Shown here: positions 538 to 11,569 of the stretch, one piece after another
How the letters are laid out: each line of letters starts with the position of its first letter
Position numbering within the stretch: the first letter of the stretch is position 1
IMG/VR virus record: IMGVR_UViG_3300021197_001384
DNA length: 20,000 bases
Strand: one strand, 5' to 3'
DNA from: an uncultured virus (IMG/VR IMGVR_UViG_3300021197_001384)
Taxonomy: Duplodnaviria; Heunggongvirae; Uroviricota; Caudoviricetes
The notes under the pieces: model-generated
The model's database searches: none
What the model was told of the DNA's origin: nothing
Seen by the model: the letters and a program-made list of their open reading frames with translations, nothing else
Translations under genes and position numbers: made by a program

Positions 538-755
538 ACTGGGGCACCGAATATCTGCTCCACCATCTGGGCAAGGCTACGGCCACCCTGCGTGACGTCC
601 CTCGGGGCACTCCGAGGCATCGCAAGAGCATGTTCCTGCAGGCGATGGTCTCCCACTCCATGTGGCTGCAGGAGTCCACTGGATCTGGCAATCGGGCCAA
701 GCGCAGGCTGCAGCATGACCGCTGGCTGATGATGAACCGCGAGCTGTATGGCTGA
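534..755 (+). CDS. hypothetical early protein (73 aa, basic)
   Basis: ATGA overlap with the previous stop; GGAGG upstream; MNWGTEYLLHHLGK... Confidence 0.65.
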   Translation: MNWGTEYLLHHLGKATATLRDVPRGTPRHRKSMFLQAMVSHSMWLQESTGSGNRAKRRLQHDRWLMMNRELYG

Positions 756-799
756 GATCCTCACCGAGCTGACCTTCGGGTCGGCTCCATGAGCACCTC
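754..799 (+). ncRNA. unidentified structured hairpin motif, copy 1 (CC/CA internal loop, UUCG tetraloop)
   Basis: Lower stem 754-763/790-799 (2 mismatches), internal loop CC 764-765 / CA 788-789, 9-bp upper stem 766-774/779-787 with one G-U pair, loop TTCG. Confidence 0.6.
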
Positions 800-842
800 T
801 GCTCGAAACCAAAACAACTGTAAATCGAAAGTATCAAAAATG
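783..842 (+). repeat. 60-nt intergenic direct repeat, copy 1, ending in the next start codon
   Basis: Matches 1125-1184 at 58 of 60 positions: GGCTCCA[T/A]GAGCACCTC[T/C]GCTCGAAACCAAAACAACTGTAAATCGAAAGTATCAAAAATG. Confidence 0.95.
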
Positions 843-1100
843 TCAGAAGAATCGAAATTCCTGTTCCTCGTTGCCACCGCAGATCAATGCTGGGGTCGGG
901 GCACCACACCGAAGGAAGCGGCAGGGAAGGCCATCGAGGCCGGTGCTCGCAAGGCGTCAGCGGCGTGCTGCTACGTCATCGTTGGGGCGAAAGATCCCGA
1001 AGAGGTCTGCGTAAACGATGACGGCTGGGTCTGCTGGCCCACTGGGACCGATGACCACATGTTCCGCGTCAAGCGGGTCAGTGCGCTGCTGGGTTGGTGA
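840..1100 (+). CDS. hypothetical early protein (86 aa)
   Basis: Start set at the ATG that ends the repeated leader (MSEESKFLFLVATADQCWGRG...). Confidence 0.75.
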   Translation: MSEESKFLFLVATADQCWGRGTTPKEAAGKAIEAGARKASAACCYVIVGAKDPEEVCVNDDGWVCWPTGTDDHMFRVKRVSALLGW

Positions 1101-1141
1101 TGCTCTCCGAGCCCAGTGACAGTGGGCTCCAAGAGCACCTC
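1097..1141 (+). ncRNA. unidentified structured hairpin motif, copy 2
   Basis: Lower stem 1097-1106/1132-1141 (2 mismatches), CC 1107-1108 / CA 1130-1131 internal loop, upper stem GAGCCCA/TGGGCTC; compensatory changes relative to copy 1. Confidence 0.6.
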
Positions 1142-1184
1142 CGCTCGAAACCAAAACAACTGTAAATCGAAAGTATCAAAAATG
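1125..1184 (+). repeat. 60-nt intergenic direct repeat, copy 2
   Basis: Same sequence as 783-842 apart from two substitutions. Confidence 0.95.
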
Positions 1185-2015
1185 ATTAATAACTTAGAAT
1201 CCTACGCACCTGCAGCCATGACCACTTTTGCCGCTCCTGAGCGCAGTGATCGGTATGCCCATCTGACCACCAGTGACGTGGTCGATGTGCTCGCGGCTGA
1301 TGGGTGGGCATTGAACCGAGCTACCCAGACCAGTGCTCGGAGTGATCGTGGCAAGCTGCATGGCAAGCATGTGTTGGACTTCCACCATCCTGAGCTGCCA
1401 GCGGTCAATGAGGAGTATCGGCCCCGTCTGGTGCTCCAGAACGCCTCGGATGGCACCAGTGCGGTTCGGATGTTCGCGGGGTTCTTCCGGTTCGTCTGTG
1501 CCAACGGAATGGTCAGTGGAGACGCTGCCATGAGCATGGTGGCACGCCATACTGGCAAGGGGCTGCAGGAGGCGGTCGTGACTGGAGCGGCTGAGATCCG
1601 TGGCCGGATGGACATGATGCAAGACCGTATCAGCCGCTGGGGCGCCACCGAGATCAACGCCATCGATGGCATCGAGTTCGCCAAAGCGGCCTGCAAGGTG
1701 CGGTGGCCTAAGGCTGAGATGGTTGTCGGTCGTGAGGGCCTCTACGACTTCCAAGACCACTCCGGTCGCGCCATCGATGTTGTTGGTGCCCTCCGCACCC
1801 GTCGTCGCGCTGACGACTCCCACGACCTCTGGTCCGTATTTAACCGGATCCAAGAGGCAGTCACCAAGGGATTCGTCAATCAAGCCACCATCCGAGATGG
1901 CTACCGCGACATCCGGTCTACCCGTCGCGTCAGCAGCGCGATCCAAGATCTCAAGATCAACCGCGAGCTGTGGAACGTAGCCGAAGAAGTGGCCGTGGCC
2001 TACGGTGTGAACTGA
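1182..2015 (+). CDS. DUF932/DUF945 family protein
   Basis: Family-like motifs SDRYAHLTT, LQNASDGTSA, AGFFRFVCANGMV, RRRADDSHDLWSVFNRIQE, LKINRELW. Start at the ATG ending repeat copy 2. Confidence 0.88.
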   Translation: MINNLESYAPAAMTTFAAPERSDRYAHLTTSDVVDVLAADGWALNRATQTSARSDRGKLHGKHVLDFHHPELPAVNEEYRPRLVLQNASDGTSAVRMFAGFFRFVCANGMVSGDAAMSMVARHTGKGLQEAVVTGAAEIRGRMDMMQDRISRWGATEINAIDGIEFAKAACKVRWPKAEMVVGREGLYDFQDHSGRAIDVVGALRTRRRADDSHDLWSVFNRIQEAVTKGFVNQATIRDGYRDIRSTRRVSSAIQDLKINRELWNVAEEVAVAYGVN

Positions 2016-2075
2016 GTCGAAACACCCTGCGGGGTGTCTGCGGAAACTGACCAACCCGCACTGATGAGACGGTCG
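2016..2075 (+). ncRNA. type II hammerhead ribozyme with loop I / 3' tail pseudoknot; predicted cleavage after C2038 (GUC)
   Basis: GTC-GAAA-CACCC TGCG GGGTG-TC-TGCGG(loop)CCGCA-CTGATGA-GAC. All core nucleotides present; stems I, II and III pair perfectly; loop TGACC 2048-2052 pairs with tail GGTCG 2071-2075. Confidence 0.93.
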
Positions 2076-2097
2076 TAACAACAACTGTAATCCAAAA

Positions 2098-4055: not shown

Positions 4056-4087
4056 AGCCCCGCCTCCTTGGATGGAAGCGGGGTTTT
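4056..4087 (+). terminator. terminator-like hairpin between the SSB-like gene and the HNH gene
   Basis: AGCCCCGC-C-TCC/GGA-A-GCGGGGTT stem with only four T's in total, so probably leaky. Confidence 0.5.
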
Positions 4088-4105
4088 CGGGTGATGAATA
4101 ACAAT

Positions 4106-4645
4106 ATGAAATCAGAAAACGAAGAAGTCTTCCGGCCCATTGCTGGCTATGAAGATCTCTACCTAATCTCCTGCTCCGGTCGAGTTCAATCGTTACCGAG
4201 ATGGGTCGTCTGCAATGGCGTTATGGCCCTCAGGGATGGACGGATCTTGAAGGGAAGCTCACATCCTGATCGATACAGGATAGTCGGCCTCTGGCGTGAC
4301 GGAGTTAGGTGGACAAGTTACATTCACCGACTGGTGGCCCAAGCGTTCCTGAGTAATCCCGATGGCAAGCCGCAAGTGAACCACATCGATGGAGACAAGG
4401 CCAATAACCGGATGGAAAATCTGGAGTGGGTCACTGACCTTGAGAATAAGCGACATGCCATGGAGACTGGGCTGACAATAAAGGGCGAGGACCACGGTAA
4501 CTCCAAGCTCACGGAGGAGGAGGTCCTTTACATTCGGAGCAATCCCGACGGGCTCACTCAGCGTGAGCTGGCCACCAAGCTGGAAGTCTCCCAATCCGTG
4601 ATCTGCAACATCCAGCTCGGCAAGACATGGGGGCACGTTCAATGA
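4106..4645 (+). CDS. NUMOD4-HNH homing endonuclease with C-terminal HTH
   Basis: NUMOD4 (EVFRPIAGYEDLYLISCSGRVQS), HNH (IHRLVAQAF...VNHIDGDKANNRMENLEW), HTH (TQRELATKLEVSQSVICNI). Start could also be 4091 or 4094. Confidence 0.93.
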   Translation: MKSENEEVFRPIAGYEDLYLISCSGRVQSLPRWVVCNGVMALRDGRILKGSSHPDRYRIVGLWRDGVRWTSYIHRLVAQAFLSNPDGKPQVNHIDGDKANNRMENLEWVTDLENKRHAMETGLTIKGEDHGNSKLTEEEVLYIRSNPDGLTQRELATKLEVSQSVICNIQLGKTWGHVQ

Positions 4646-5381: not shown

Positions 5382-5447
5382 GTTCAGTGCCTGCCGGTGG
5401 GCCTAAGCACCGGCACCAATTTCACCCAAACAACTGAAAGGAAAATC

Positions 5448-5915
5448 ATGAAGACAACGATAGGAGAACATATGGCCAAGGCCGTGGTCGCAGACTACGC
5501 CAAGGGCAAGCGATACAACGAGGCGCAGCTGGCCAAGAGACTGGACGAGCTGGTCATGCAATACCGAGCGGTGGAGGAGGCCCCCAAGGTAAAGAGCATC
5601 TGGGACGTGAGCTCTCTCGACATCTACAACGCCTACCCTCGCAGGGTAGCGAAGACGGCCGCACTGAAGGCGATTGGCAAGGCGATGATGGGCTGGCCTC
5701 ATGATATGCTGCTGGAGCGCACTGAGGCGTTCAAGGAAGCCACGGACAAGTGGCCTGAGGGGGACCGCAAGTTCATCCCGCACCCGAGCACGTGGTTCAA
5801 CAACGAGGGGTTCGACGAGGATCCCAAGGAGTGGGTCCGCAAGAGCGACGAGCAACTGAAGCAGGAGCGCCGTGAGGCCAAGGCGAGTGAACCCACCAAC
5901 TACGAGGTCTTCTGA
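5448..5915 (+). CDS. replication initiator/replisome organiser-like protein
   Basis: YNAYPRRVAKTAALKA and FIPHPSTWFNNEGFDED motifs typical of phage initiator C-terminal domains; directly upstream of a DnaC-like ATPase. Confidence 0.75.
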   Translation: MKTTIGEHMAKAVVADYAKGKRYNEAQLAKRLDELVMQYRAVEEAPKVKSIWDVSSLDIYNAYPRRVAKTAALKAIGKAMMGWPHDMLLERTEAFKEATDKWPEGDRKFIPHPSTWFNNEGFDEDPKEWVRKSDEQLKQERREAKASEPTNYEVF

Positions 5916-6721
5916 TGAATATCCCTGACAACGTGATTCCCTTTGCTGACATTGGATTGGATGAGTTCGGGGGCATGAGCCCCCAGCAGATCGGAACGAT
6001 CCCAGCCGATGAGAACTGGTCCCCCCTGAAGGAGGAGATCGAGGTGACCTGCCGAGTCTGCGAGCGGGAGAAGTTCCGAGCGGTTCGATTTCTTGCCGGT
6101 AAGATGGCCTGCCCTAGCTGCTGCGATGCCCATGAGCTGGAGGATTTGAAGAACCAGTGCAGGGTGGCGTGGGAGCGGCTTGCTCCGTCCATGTTTCGGG
6201 AGACCGATGTGAAGCATCCTGACTTCCCGAAGGGGATCTGGAAGGAGCTGAAGGCCAGTTGGGATCTCAACGAGAGTTTGGTGCTCTACGGCCCGACTGG
6301 TGCAGCGAAGACCCGGGTGGCCATGCTGCTGCTGCAGTGGGCAATGTTCAAAGGAAAGACCGTGGACGCGATCTGGCCGGAAGAACTGGTGGAGTTTGCC
6401 AAGGGCCGTGATCGTCTGAAGAAGATCCAGAGCCTTGGTTCCAACAACGTGCTGCTGCTCGATGATGCTCTGCTGACTGGTGCGGCCGATGAACGGGTGG
6501 CCAGCTTCTGTAAGGACATTATAGATTTTTCCCAGCGCCATGGGAACTCCATCATCATCACCACGCAGGTGGGTGGCGAAGCCTACAAGCAAGCTAGTGA
6601 CAAGTGGGAGAACGCCACGAAGGCCGACAGGGAGCGCATTGAGGCCCTGCTCAGGCGCATTCGGCAGGTGGGCAGAGTGATCCCCTTCGTGCAGCCTGAC
6701 AAAGACGAGGAGAGCTTCTAA
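5915..6721 (+). CDS. DnaC/IstB-like AAA+ ATPase (helicase loader)
   Basis: CxxC...CxxC at the N-terminus, Walker A GPTGAAKT, Walker B VLLLDD, IIITTQ sensor region; TGATG overlap with the initiator. Confidence 0.82.
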   Translation: MNIPDNVIPFADIGLDEFGGMSPQQIGTIPADENWSPLKEEIEVTCRVCEREKFRAVRFLAGKMACPSCCDAHELEDLKNQCRVAWERLAPSMFRETDVKHPDFPKGIWKELKASWDLNESLVLYGPTGAAKTRVAMLLLQWAMFKGKTVDAIWPEELVEFAKGRDRLKKIQSLGSNNVLLLDDALLTGAADERVASFCKDIIDFSQRHGNSIIITTQVGGEAYKQASDKWENATKADRERIEALLRRIRQVGRVIPFVQPDKDEESF

Positions 6722-6995: not shown

Positions 6996-7348
6996 CCTAC
7001 GATCACGATGGGAAGCTGATCCGGTTTGACCTGAACGGGAAGCGGGTGAGCGGCACGGTGGTGAAAACCCATGACCGTCGCCATGTCACCGTCCGTGGCA
7101 GGTCAGGCAAGACCGTGAAGGTGGACATGCTCGACCAGCATGGCGTGGTTGCCTTGCCCAGTGGGTTGGAGGTCACCACCATTTGGAATGAGGATCACCC
7201 ACCGAATGGAGTGCCTGCTGATCGGGCTGAGTTTCATCGTGCTGTCGATGATCCTCCTGCGCCTGCTGTGGCTCCTGCTCCAACTCTAAAGCCTGCGCGT
7301 CCTGCTCAGGCACCAACAACAACAACTGAGCAAATGATATTCTTATGA
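6992..7348 (+). CDS. hypothetical protein with Pro/Ala-rich C-terminus
   Basis: GTGA overlap, GGAGG upstream, 118 aa. Confidence 0.6.
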   Translation: MTYDHDGKLIRFDLNGKRVSGTVVKTHDRRHVTVRGRSGKTVKVDMLDQHGVVALPSGLEVTTIWNEDHPPNGVPADRAEFHRAVDDPPAPAVAPAPTLKPARPAQAPTTTTEQMIFL

Positions 7349-7833
7349 ATCACACCAACACACAGGCCAAGATCCTGAGCCTCGACTTAGCAACCACCAC
7401 GGGGTGGGCCTTCATTGCCAACGGTGTCGTGGATCATGGAGCCCAGAGCTTCAAGCTCGGCACCAAGAAGGCAGACCCGAAGCATGCTGGGCTGCCCTTC
7501 GCCCAGTTCGACCACTGGATTGCCAATCGCATCAGGGACTACAAGCCTGAGCTGATCGTCTACGAGGAAGTCCGCAGGTGGATGAGCAGCAGTGCTGCAT
7601 GGGCCTTCTGTGGCTTCCGTGCCACGATGCTAATGCATGCTGCTCGAAACGGCATCGAGTGCATCGGCTACAGTCCGACCACTATCAAGAAGTTCGCCAC
7701 TGGTAGCGGTGCTGCGAACAAGAAGAAGATGATCGAGACGGCCAAGATGCGTTGGCCTGACGAGCAGTTCGCTTCGGACGATGCGGTGGATGCGTTGTTC
7801 CTGCTGCATCTCCATCTGGCAGGAGCCCCATAA
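7345..7833 (+). CDS. RuvC-like Holliday junction resolvase
   Basis: ILSLDLATTTGWA, IVYEE, PTTIKKFATGSGAANK and DDAVDAL give the RuvC acidic catalytic pattern. Confidence 0.88.
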   Translation: MNHTNTQAKILSLDLATTTGWAFIANGVVDHGAQSFKLGTKKADPKHAGLPFAQFDHWIANRIRDYKPELIVYEEVRRWMSSSAAWAFCGFRATMLMHAARNGIECIGYSPTTIKKFATGSGAANKKKMIETAKMRWPDEQFASDDAVDALFLLHLHLAGAP

Positions 7834-9292: not shown

Positions 9293-11569
9293 TTAGTTAT
9301 TTTCCAATGCCTCAAGACGGGCCGTCAGTTCCTGTAGTGCACCGACGAGCAGAGGCACTAGCTTGGATTGGTCGATTCCTTGGTATTCTGGCACCGACCT
9401 AGTGCCCATGACGGCAGGAGTGACTTCGTTTCCGTCGTCATCTAATACCGCTGGAGTGACCTCGTATTCCTCGTCACGCATTGCATTTTTTTCGCCGGAT
9501 ATTGCTTCCGGAACGACCTCTTGAACTTCGTGAGCGATAAATCCATCCACGATCCTCTTGTCATCAGAGATGAAGTTGAAGCGGCTGGGCTTGAGCTTGC
9601 CGATGCGTTGCAGCGAATCCGACATTGGCACCACGTTTTCCTTCAAACGATAGTCCGAAGAGGTGTTGTATGCCGTGGAGGTCTGGTTGGTGGTAATCGT
9701 GCCGCAGGTCTGCGTGGCACTTATAAAGATGGCTTGGGTCTGCACCCCAGCCCCCATCTTCCCGAAGCGGACGTATTTGCTGGCGTTATCCCACGCAAAC
9801 CCACCGACTCCAACGGTGGGCATTGTCATTCCGCTGAAGATGGCGTCGCCGCCAGATTTAAGCGTCATTCTCTCGGTTCGAGTGCCTGCTGAGTTCTCTA
9901 CAAAGGTTAGGTTATTTTGTGATCCTCCTCCACTTGGGTCTTGGAGCGAGGTCTCCCACCAATAACTTGGGTTAGTGGTGTAAAGACTTATGAAGTTCCG
10001 ATAGTTCTCAGAACCGCTTCCTCCTTGGAATCGGGCCAATTCGGTAGCACCAGATACAGAACCTTTAAATACGTGTAGGGGTGCCGCCGGTGCCGTGATC
10101 CCAATGCCGACCTCGCCAGTAGCCAAAACTCGCATTCTCTCGACACCATCCTTGTCGTTAAGCTCAAGGATTCGATCACCCGAATTGCTACCAGCACTAA
10201 TTTCTAATCCGTTGCCGCTGGCTGTTGAGTTTGAAATCAGTCCGACAAAATCGGTGGTCGCGCCACTTACGGTGAACAACCGTGAAGGTGTAGACGTCCC
10301 CACGCCGACGTTGCCGCTCGTCGCGAGCGTCATTTGCGGAAACGAATTGTTCGTTCCGAAGATCAGCGGATGGTTAGTGGTAGTCCCGATAGCAAACGAG
10401 TTGGTCAGCGTGGTGCTGCCGTAAATGATGCCGTTGACCGTTCCGTCGTTGACCGCGATGCCGCCATTGGTGGCAGTTTGGACGCTTAGCTTGGTGCTCG
10501 GTCCCGTCGTCCCCACGCCGACGTTGCCTGCGGCGGTGATTCGCATGGCTTCACTGTCAAGTGAGCCGCCGCCTCCACCTGTGCGAAACGACATGGACCC
10601 AGTCCCAGCCGTTGCGCCCCATGAACGAATCCGGAAGTCGTTATTATTAAAATCGAGACCGCCCGCACTTGTTTGATTAAGAGAAACTCCTCCCCGTGCA
10701 AGGACAGGACCATTTACATCGAGAGTTGACTTCCCCGTTCCGGCTGGGGCAGGTGCCGTCAATCCGATGCCGAGGCCAGTGGAGGTGAATGTAGCGACAT
10801 CGCCAGTTCCGACGACTCCAACCTTGGTGCTACTCTGCGTGAGATTGAGTATGCGACCTGTGCCGACGTGGTCGTAAATCGAAAGACCAGCCGACCCAGC
10901 GTAAAGGCGGGTTTCGTTTGAAACGTCTAGACCAAAAAGACGCCCGAAAAAATCAACTTGTGTGCTTGCACTCAGACTCGTCGCCGCCACCGTGCTCGGC
11001 GTCGTCGCCCCAATCGTCGTGCCGTCAATCGTCCCGCCGTTAATGTCTGCCGTGTCAGCAACCAGCGAGTCGATGTTCGCCGTGCCGTCGAGGTAGAGGT
11101 TGCGCCACTCGTGGCCCGTGCGACCAAGGTCGTAGGTGTTGTCGGTGGCTGGCGTAAACTCAGATGCAATCCGAGCGTTGAACGTCACCGTGTCACTATT
11201 GCTGCTACCGAGAGTCGTGTTGTTGTTAATCGACAATGCATCTGCCGTAAGCAGGTTGGCATCACTGACTGTAACCCCAGAATTTTGTATGACCTTGCCG
11301 GTTGTGCTATCAAAACGAGCAACAGCATTATCCGTAGATGACGCTGGTCCAACTACATCACCAGCACCATTAGACGTCCATTCCACATCTGTAGCCGTGC
11401 CATTCAAAGAAAGCACTTTATTTGCATTTCCCGTATAATCAGGAAGCAAATTAACACGGGCATCAGACGCATTGTCAGCCCCTGTTCCACCGTTAACAAC
11501 GGGCAATACGCCAGAAATATTTTCCAGGGAGTCTGGTGTATCCAGAATCAGGGTCTTAAAAACGTCCAT
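9293..11569 (-). CDS. tail fibre with C-terminal intramolecular chaperone (peptidase S74)
   Basis: Gly/Thr/Ser-rich; repeated GNVG[VI]GT.xP units; SDYRLKENV...GFIAHEVQEVVPEA...IDQSKLVPLLVGALQEL chaperone domain. Confidence 0.92.
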   Translation of the reverse strand: MDVFKTLILDTPDSLENISGVLPVVNGGTGADNASDARVNLLPDYTGNANKVLSLNGTATDVEWTSNGAGDVVGPASSTDNAVARFDSTTGKVIQNSGVTVSDANLLTADALSINNNTTLGSSNSDTVTFNARIASEFTPATDNTYDLGRTGHEWRNLYLDGTANIDSLVADTADINGGTIDGTTIGATTPSTVAATSLSASTQVDFFGRLFGLDVSNETRLYAGSAGLSIYDHVGTGRILNLTQSSTKVGVVGTGDVATFTSTGLGIGLTAPAPAGTGKSTLDVNGPVLARGGVSLNQTSAGGLDFNNNDFRIRSWGATAGTGSMSFRTGGGGGSLDSEAMRITAAGNVGVGTTGPSTKLSVQTATNGGIAVNDGTVNGIIYGSTTLTNSFAIGTTTNHPLIFGTNNSFPQMTLATSGNVGVGTSTPSRLFTVSGATTDFVGLISNSTASGNGLEISAGSNSGDRILELNDKDGVERMRVLATGEVGIGITAPAAPLHVFKGSVSGATELARFQGGSGSENYRNFISLYTTNPSYWWETSLQDPSGGGSQNNLTFVENSAGTRTERMTLKSGGDAIFSGMTMPTVGVGGFAWDNASKYVRFGKMGAGVQTQAIFISATQTCGTITTNQTSTAYNTSSDYRLKENVVPMSDSLQRIGKLKPSRFNFISDDKRIVDGFIAHEVQEVVPEAISGEKNAMRDEEYEVTPAVLDDDGNEVTPAVMGTRSVPEYQGIDQSKLVPLLVGALQELTARLEALENN

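Follow-up and report, generated by a model that had tools for sequence, protein, structure and literature searches.

The window analysed here, a stretch of 20,000 nucleotides (nt) from an uncultured virus (IMG/VR record IMGVR_UViG_3300021197_001384), forms the right-hand end of a metagenome contig of 70,251 bp whose source looks like a tailed phage; its G+C content is 52%. The early operon of this phage, on the plus strand, is made up of tight gene groups, within which stop and start codons overlap or lie 1 nt apart, and the groups are set apart by three gaps, 84, 81 and 82 nt long. The first two gaps, on either side of a gene for a protein of 86 amino acids (aa), each hold one copy of a hairpin unit that is the subject of this study, and the third, behind a gene for a DUF932 protein, holds a plausible hammerhead ribozyme. 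Gap 1 extends from the stop codon at 753-755 to the ATG at 840, and gap 2 from the stop codon at 1098-1100 to the ATG at 1182. The features of this region are as follows.

754-799, plus strand: hairpin copy 1, from sequence and minimum-energy fold (-27.8 kcal/mol, z -3.84)
754-763/790-799, plus strand: lower stem of copy 1, 8 of 10 positions paired, G754-C799 inwards to A763-U790
764-765/788-789, plus strand: 2x2 internal loop of copy 1, C764 C765 opposite C788 A789
766-774/779-787, plus strand: upper stem of copy 1, 9 bp, G766-C787 to C774-G779, starting GAGC/GCUC and containing U770.G783
775-778, plus strand: apical loop of copy 1, UUCG (cUUCGg)
791-804, plus strand: small alternative GAGC/GCUC hairpin of copy 1, then GAAAC at 805-809
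810-842, plus strand: A-rich unstructured leader of copy 1, with AACAACTGTAA at 813-823, ending in ATG 840-842 of the 86-aa gene
840-1100, plus strand: 86-aa gene between the two hairpin units
1096-1142, plus strand: hairpin copy 2, from sequence and minimum-energy fold (-29.8 kcal/mol, z -3.37)
1096-1106/1132-1142, plus strand: lower stem of copy 2, 9 of 11 positions paired, G1096-C1142 inwards to U1106-A1132
1107-1108/1130-1131, plus strand: 2x2 internal loop of copy 2, C1107 C1108 opposite C1130 A1131
1109-1115/1123-1129, plus strand: upper stem of copy 2, 7 bp, G1109-C1129 to A1115-U1123, starting GAGC/GCUC
1133-1146, plus strand: small alternative GAGC/GCUC hairpin of copy 2, then GAAAC at 1147-1151
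1152-1184, plus strand: leader of copy 2, with AACAACTGTAA at 1155-1165, closed by the start codon of the DUF932 gene, ATG 1182-1184
1182-2015, plus strand: gene for the DUF932 protein (Pfam E 1.1e-25)
2015-2078, plus strand: Hammerhead_II (Rfam, 31.1 bits, gathering score 37, E 5.9e-4)
2080-2090, plus strand: leader motif AACAACTGTAA after the hammerhead, then ATG at 2098

Structure and setting of the hairpin units

A preliminary description had proposed, from the letters of the sequence, a hairpin with an imperfect lower stem of about 10 bp, a 2x2 internal loop of CC opposite CA and an upper stem starting GAGC/GCUC, overlapping the upstream stop codon, and both sequence comparison and folding confirmed it in the two gaps. 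The lower stem is interrupted by the mismatches A757.C796 and C759.C794 in copy 1 and by U1098.U1140 and A1100.C1138 in copy 2, the upper stem of copy 2 closes on a 7-nt apical loop, GUGACAG, and each upstream stop codon (TGA, 753-755 and 1098-1100) falls within or next to the 5' strand of that copy's lower stem. Among 200 dinucleotide shuffles of each copy, none was as stable as the native fold. An inverted-repeat listing detected copy 2 (1096-1118/1120-1142, 78% complementary) and missed copy 1 at the same settings. A direct repeat of 63 nt with 95% identity (780-842 and 1122-1184) covers the two copies from the upper stem's 3' half through the next ATG, and alignment of the copies showed their 5' halves to be clearly homologous as well. 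Differences between the copies cluster in the apical stem-loop, and pairing is retained. In the two-copy alignment, which contains 19 pairs, 91.9% of 37 cells are paired, and this value falls to 29.7-47.2% when the 3' partners are slid by 1 to 3 columns. Three pairs are altered on both sides (A-U/U-A beside the loop, G-C/C-G and C-G/U-A) and one further pair differs as U.G to C-G, in agreement with the structure-preserving changes that had been reported between the copies.

The 3' strand of the lower stem can also pair with sequence farther downstream. A competing small hairpin, GAGC/GCUC followed by GAAAC, had been suggested and is found in both copies, and the pattern GAGC-6 nt-GCUC-GAAAC occurs twice against an expectation of 0.01. 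Residues 791-799 are common to the small hairpin and the lower stem of copy 1, which makes the two folds mutually exclusive, and the small hairpin is predicted to form once the 5' strand is removed, at about -6 kcal/mol (-6.1 kcal/mol for the copy 1 fragment that begins at A789). The 3' strand that a putative cut would free is identical in the two copies. The loop of the small hairpin (795-800 and 1137-1142) reads ACCUCU or ACCUCC, and its 5' partner in the lower stem is Shine-Dalgarno-like (GGUGAU in copy 2); we take this loop to resemble the anti-Shine-Dalgarno end of 16S rRNA, possibly by chance.

AACAACTGTAA and an A-rich start region stand at the end of each of the three gaps. This leader motif occurs 4 times where 0.29 occurrences are expected, a count that none of 200 shuffles reached. 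No Shine-Dalgarno sequence precedes the genes behind the three gaps, whereas the coupled neighbours at 135, 295, 534 and 6992 have GGAGG. The leader is predicted to be unpaired in the full-length RNA and equally after removal of the 5' strand. A version of the motif with A for T lies at 5429-5439, behind a hairpin at 5393-5418, and it is also present at about 1409-1420 of L261, behind a CCC-UUCG-GGG hairpin; L261 is the window's own contig and is identical to the window from L261 base 1718 on. The recurrent layout is a hairpin, an A/C-rich spacer, AACAACUG(U/A)AA and an A-rich start. Written as AACAACTG(T/A)AA, the motif precedes five early-operon genes, each a few nucleotides past a hairpin or the hammerhead, and could act as a translational enhancer or as a site for binding.

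Upstream of the operon, a promoter-like TTGACC-17-TTTAGT is present in the 1.7 kb of L261 that precede the window. Between 1330 and 1460 of L261 this sequence, the CCC-UUCG-GGG hairpin and the leader motif follow one another ahead of the first plus-strand gene; this is probably the early promoter region, and the genes farther upstream appear to run in the opposite direction. Within 754-842 and 1096-1184 there is no promoter-like or terminator-like site on the plus strand, and we therefore place the units inside a long transcript. Intrinsic termination was rejected as a role for the hairpins, which are followed by GCUCGAAACCAAAAC, have no U-run and are absent from the terminator listing. Readthrough of the stop codon was considered as well, since in both gaps (84 and 81 nt) an open frame continues in phase from the stop codon to the ATG that follows, and was ruled out by a relative from sequencing run X2 (described below) in which a 1-nt deletion at 836, together with T821A, breaks the frame relation.

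The third gap bears out the earlier statement that the hairpin occupies the same kind of slot as a hammerhead. The element at 2015-2078 contains both core strands, CUGAUGA and GAAAC, as well as a GUC triplet whose last letter is 2038, and a 4-bp pseudoknot is possible between GACC in loop I (2049-2052) and GGUC in the 3' tail (2071-2074). A contact of this kind, between loop I and the 3' tail, is the tertiary contact of type II hammerheads according to the report on them (PMC3088659). Judged by its sequence, 2015-2078 is a plausible type II hammerhead with a score below gathering.

Relatives, variants and the conservation of the unit

Comparison with Rfam agreed with the remark in the preliminary description that the hairpin could not be fitted by eye to hammerhead, twister-sister or pistol patterns, in that no family matched either copy. 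At gathering score there was no match in the 20-kb window; at E <= 10 on positions 650-2200 the hammerhead was the sole credible match. Rows for C/D-box small nucleolar RNAs (snoRNAs) at 722-774 were dismissed, as they derive from UGAUGA/CUGA in the coding end. Searched alone as 106-nt slices at E <= 10, each unit returned only microRNA, snoRNA, long noncoding RNA and OxyS rows far under their gathering scores, and the Rfam ribozyme models, twister-sister among them, matched neither copy.

These results bear on the proposal that the unit is itself a small self-cleaving ribozyme, interchangeable with the hammerhead and either a cut-down relative of twister-sister (with cuts between C788 and A789 and between C1130 and A1131) or a new class, which we consider improbable. 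It gains from the slot held in common with the hammerhead; the same logic of hammerhead association led to twister-sister, pistol and hatchet, and twister-sister itself has been found close to hammerheads in phage-like settings. The internal loop does not vary, nor do the pairs on either side of it, while the rest of the stem is variable, and the 3' strand GCUCCA(A/U) fits the pattern of minimal ribozymes of the twister-sister-like (TS-like) type if one extra C-G pair is allowed. In their description (PMC11620745), these ribozymes cut between C10 and A11 in G7 C8 U9 C10 A11 A12, opposite G36 C37 U38 A39 G40, with C8-G40 and U9-A39 paired, U at position 12 in twister-sister proper and U38C tolerated. 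As in that description, the units have two stems around a conserved internal loop and a C-A step on the GCUC..A(A/U) strand, but their loop is 2x2 and not 6+5 nt, the fit requires an insertion in each strand, which adds the extra C-G pair, and the peripheral stems are missing. Nor do the units have a junction, a pseudoknot or a conserved apical loop (the apical loops are UUCG, GUGACAG and UGCG) from which a catalytic pocket could be built. The hammerhead core CUGANGA is absent, and the motif occurs in one lineage only, among the matches listed in the collections scanned, whereas known ribozyme classes are widespread. Identity with twister-sister or TS-like ribozymes was rejected on the 2x2 loop, the need for one inserted pair and the missing Rfam match, the C-A step and flanking stems being present; identity of the units with hammerheads was rejected because CUCCA(A/U) replaces CUGANGA, there is no third stem and no hammerhead model (clan CL00010) matches at E <= 10. 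A hammerhead built on CUGAUGA at 726-732 was discarded too, having no counterpart before copy 2 and no model match. In its most specific form the proposal would make the unit a new, very small self-cleaving motif with a C-A step held by GAGC/GCUC, perhaps a cousin of the twister-sister core, which would stand in for the hammerhead and free mRNAs that begin with a 5'-hydroxyl hairpin and a leader that is open and Shine-Dalgarno-free; this we judge very unlikely. A hairpin that did cleave itself would rank with the smallest ribozymes found in nature.

Among the matches listed from large collections, nothing but the window's own contig continued like the unit. In viral contigs the exact 3' core and a copy-1-type stem pattern each had 0 matches; CCGAGC..GCTCCANGAGC had at least 120 loci, none of which continued like the unit among the matches listed; GCTCCANGAGC..GCTCGAAA had 2 loci, both unrelated; the leader motif had 65 loci, 0 with the hairpin of the unit; and the hairpin base combined with the leader had 41 loci, with at most 3 further pairs each. 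Metagenome contigs yielded at least 118 loci, of which L261 was the sole real one among the matches listed, and genome contigs gave 0 matches with one pattern and 6 chance matches with another. A covariance model built from the two copies recovered only those copies in 267,693 bases, 80 distant DUF932 loci included (best foreign score 14.7 bits, E 0.43), and found nothing in phage C75C1 (best 10.7 bits). In GenBank phages, blastn with the unit produced only chance matches of 23-28 nt, and tblastn with the DUF932 protein reached at most 32% identity. That protein has two relatives in a large protein set, at 90% identity (ENA contig) and 74% identity (Logan contig), and no close relative in viral contigs. 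Phage C75C1 is the only GenBank phage with a clear structural-protein relative (61% identity over 696 aa); its early region is different, and it lacks all the elements treated in this study. By sequence, then, the unit is lineage-specific and not widespread among the viral, metagenome and genome collections scanned, as far as the matches listed extend. The suggestion that it might belong to a conserved, ribozyme-associated (RAGATH-like) class is not supported, with no homologue beyond the source contig among the matches listed from those collections. The unit is new as a sequence family, yet it is of a known kind of element.

Natural variants came from contigs of four public DNA runs (X1 to X4) aligned on 600-2200, in a listing that leaves out differences closer than about 30 nt to a contig end. 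Run X2 contains a relative that is 90-99% alike over this stretch and has six listed changes against copy 1 within 712-787. Four of these lie in the coding end (719, 722, 728 and 737), and the other two, A772G and T781C (U781C in RNA), are the partners of a single upper-stem pair, which passes from A-U to G-C. In a second X2 variant the unit behind the gene at 840-1100 has a copy-1-like upper stem in which the same pair is U-A, with the loop UGCG. The pair 772/781 is therefore observed as A-U, G-C and U-A, and the loop remains in the UNCG class across copy 1 and the X2 variants, which extends to relatives the covariation that had been described between the two copies. The structure of the unit, its repetition, its position and its compensatory variation are matters of observation. 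Together, the fold, the shared slot, the compensatory variants and the absence of an Rfam family point to a selected intercistronic RNA structure, and we regard the hairpin as a genuine RNA cassette, under selection and specific to its lineage, that lies between early genes of the phage.

GAGC/GCUC and CC..CA are constant in all variants wherever they can be read, and the apical stem varies. Invariance of a loop and its adjacent pairs, beside a freely covarying apical stem, is also what would be expected of a sequence-specific protein site, and coat-protein and N-protein hairpins show such a pattern of conservation. It seems improbable, however, that the CC/CA loop and GAGC/GCUC are recognised by such a protein, for instance an RNA chaperone, an antiterminator or a phage translational repressor: a scan of 25 window proteins turned up no candidate that binds RNA, more than 50 nt separate the site from the start codon under its putative control, and the hammerhead occupies the same kind of slot with no such site.

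A run X3 contig raises the question of gain and loss of genes at the DNA level. In this relative, represented by one contig at depth 2, position 755 is joined to 1152 through 53 other, unrelated letters, so that the 86-aa gene at 840-1100 is missing and one divergent unit is present. Letters of run X3 past 2017 also differ from the window (11 loose letters, starting GAGCACC), and a relative may hold another element in the hammerhead gap. The 63-nt repeats that flank the 86-aa gene, together with the X3 contig that lacks the gene and has a single unit, would suit a recombination cassette in which the hairpin is a passenger or a regulatory accessory, in the manner of the PeSL (promoter-early stem-loop) elements of T4-type phages, which, in their description (Arbiol et al. 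2010, PMC2839356), are short repeated stem-loop cassettes in gaps that flank small optional genes and mediate such shuffling. The same source makes PeSL a strong sigma-70 promoter plus a terminator, neither of which was found in the units: 754-842 and 1096-1184 contain no U-run in addition to lacking a sigma-70-like promoter on the plus strand, and membership of the PeSL family was rejected. A cassette of this kind leaves the compensatory changes in the hairpin unexplained, and it is compatible with an RNA role and no substitute for one; as the explanation of the unit it is improbable.

A possible processing and stability hairpin

We tentatively read the unit as a cis-acting intercistronic hairpin for processing and stability of the plus-strand early mRNA, similar to the RNase III sites of phage T7, and put this reading slightly short of an even chance. 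The early region of T7 contains such sites (R0.3 to R1.3, with R1.1 RNA among them) as intercistronic hairpins of the early polycistronic mRNA, repeated between genes. The units have the layout of an RNase III site, with 19-20 pairs and a 2x2 loop spanning about two helical turns, between cistrons, in two gaps. They resemble the T7 sites in the two-turn intercistronic hairpin, the internal loop and the repetition between early genes, and differ from them in the small, symmetric CC/CA loop, in a 3' strand that can refold into a second hairpin and in the Shine-Dalgarno-free genes downstream; the likeness proposed is one of layout. Of the suggestion that the hairpin is a processing signal, an RNase III-type site thus stands as the best analogy; the cleavage, the enzyme and the cut site are what we infer.

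In this model the interrupted two-turn hairpin would close the upstream cistron and would be cut on the 3' side, within or next to the CC/CA loop, by an RNase III-type endonuclease. The upstream message would then end in the stable upper hairpin and be shielded from 3' exonucleases, while the 3' strand of the lower stem, once set free, could refold, at the 5' end so created, as the small GAGC/GCUC hairpin. Behind it would come about 35 unpaired, A-rich nucleotides with AACAACUGUAA and then a start codon without a Shine-Dalgarno sequence. One gene farther on, the hammerhead would reach the same result by cleaving itself: its 3' product would start with the stem I hairpin, followed by the same leader motif, and the 5' end of the primary transcript would share this layout of hairpin and then leader. 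Given these like layouts, we read the three gaps as equivalent processing points, each of which would give messages the length of a gene, protected at the 5' end and with a leader left open for initiation independent of a Shine-Dalgarno sequence. Parallels for both routes are found in the literature. In one account, internal loops confine cleavage by bacterial RNase III to a single phosphodiester, and the 3' hairpins that remain protect the upstream RNA (PMC1540722). In another, tandem prophage hammerheads flanking single genes were read by their discoverers as processing long phage transcripts (Perreault et al. 2011, PMC3088659). The present operon resembles the latter case in having structured elements in successive gaps, one of which holds a plausible type II hammerhead with a possible pseudoknot between loop I and the 3' tail; it differs in that the units have no CUGANGA core, only GAGC-loop-GCUC-GAAAC being reminiscent of stem II plus GAAA.

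The hairpin might instead act uncut, as a structural barrier that shields the upstream cistron from 3' decay and uncouples the downstream gene, halting terminating or scanning ribosomes and keeping the leader unpaired with upstream coding RNA. A stable hairpin begins at the stop codon in both copies, the leader is predicted to be open in the uncut RNA too, the downstream genes, being Shine-Dalgarno-free, would rely on an open leader, and hairpins precede the leader motif in other gaps (5393-5418 before 5429, and CCC-UUCG-GGG in L261). Such a barrier, which we think unlikely, leaves unexplained the invariance of CC/CA and GAGC/GCUC, the competing small hairpin in the 3' strand and the presence of a self-cleaving ribozyme in an equivalent gap.

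Several observations weigh against the processing reading. In a two-sequence shuffle control, the pairing of the two copies was not significant, 60 of 500 shuffles reaching the observed value. The second X2 variant diverges from the window after GCUCCAAG, with 30 of 68 letters readable, and may have lost the lower stem and the small hairpin. Among the sequencing runs listed with the stretch there is no RNA run on record, and the RNase III box rules are known for Escherichia coli only (PMC1540722). The invariance of GAGC/GCUC, CC/CA and the 3' strand exceeds what an RNase III site needs, and it could come instead from a sequence-specific protein, from a catalytic core or from recent duplication, given that 63 nt are 95% identical. 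Of the 80 distant DUF932 loci fetched, 20 were scanned with Rfam, and 0 of the 20 had a ribozyme beside the DUF932 gene (one tRNA was seen), so the argument from the shared slot draws on this phage alone.

To these points is added the folding of the opposite strand. The reverse complements of 745-812 and 1088-1154 are more stable (-32.6 and -33.2 kcal/mol) than the plus strand (-27.8 and -29.8 kcal/mol), because both C.A oppositions in each copy turn into G.U. The G-U pair and the cUUCGg loop had been offered as signs of function at the RNA level; the first of these is a weak argument, the opposite strand folding better, and a better one is the direction of the genes together with the UNCG loops (UUCG and UGCG) on the plus strand. 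No minus-strand gene lies in the unit region, and the only promoter-like site of that strand near the units, 846 to 817, is specific to copy 1. We place the function on plus-strand RNA because the genes are all on the plus strand, the minus-strand promoter-like site accompanies one copy and the UNCG loops form on the plus strand. A minus-strand RNA, for which the greater stability speaks, and an RNase P substrate that mimics the acceptor end of a tRNA through a hairpin followed by CCA are, even jointly, very improbable. GCUC followed by CA would give U-C-C-A at the end of the hairpin if the last two pairs opened, and the hairpin at 5395-5418 is likewise followed by ACCA, but ARAGORN found 0 tRNA-like genes in the window and the CCA reading requires two conserved pairs, G-C and A-U, to be opened.

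Should the hairpins be cut as proposed, one phage would accomplish a single task, the release of single-gene messages protected at the 5' end and open in the leader, in two ways in adjacent gaps, through a hairpin site that depends on a protein and through a hammerhead that cleaves itself. This would bear on the old question of what hammerheads are for in phage genomes and would link processing with the translation of Shine-Dalgarno-free genes. Should the hairpin merely stabilise, it would be an ordinary gap element of one uncultivated marine phage lineage.

Other features of the window

The other genes named in the window belong to an early and replication block on the plus strand, which also includes the DUF932 gene, or are structural genes on the minus strand.

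4091-4645, plus strand: HNH endonuclease gene, early/replication block
5448-6721, plus strand: genes for a replication initiator and a DnaC-like loader, early/replication block
7345-7833, plus strand: RuvC gene, early/replication block
9293-11569, minus strand: tail fibre gene, among structural genes

A 22-nt repeat with 86% identity (726-747 and 1950-1971) lies near the 3' ends of the 73-aa and DUF932 genes. Both copies encode ..NREL.., and comparison of the proteins is weak (E 0.06-0.6); the repeat may be the trace of an old duplication of a gene end with its downstream gap. Directly before the HNH endonuclease gene, at 4058-4090 on the plus strand, a G+C-rich hairpin is followed by TTTT and may be a weak terminator or the edge of an inserted homing-endonuclease gene. 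Finally, the tail fibre gene contains an exact 21-nt direct repeat at 10295-10315 and 10508-10528, with a spacing of 213 nt.

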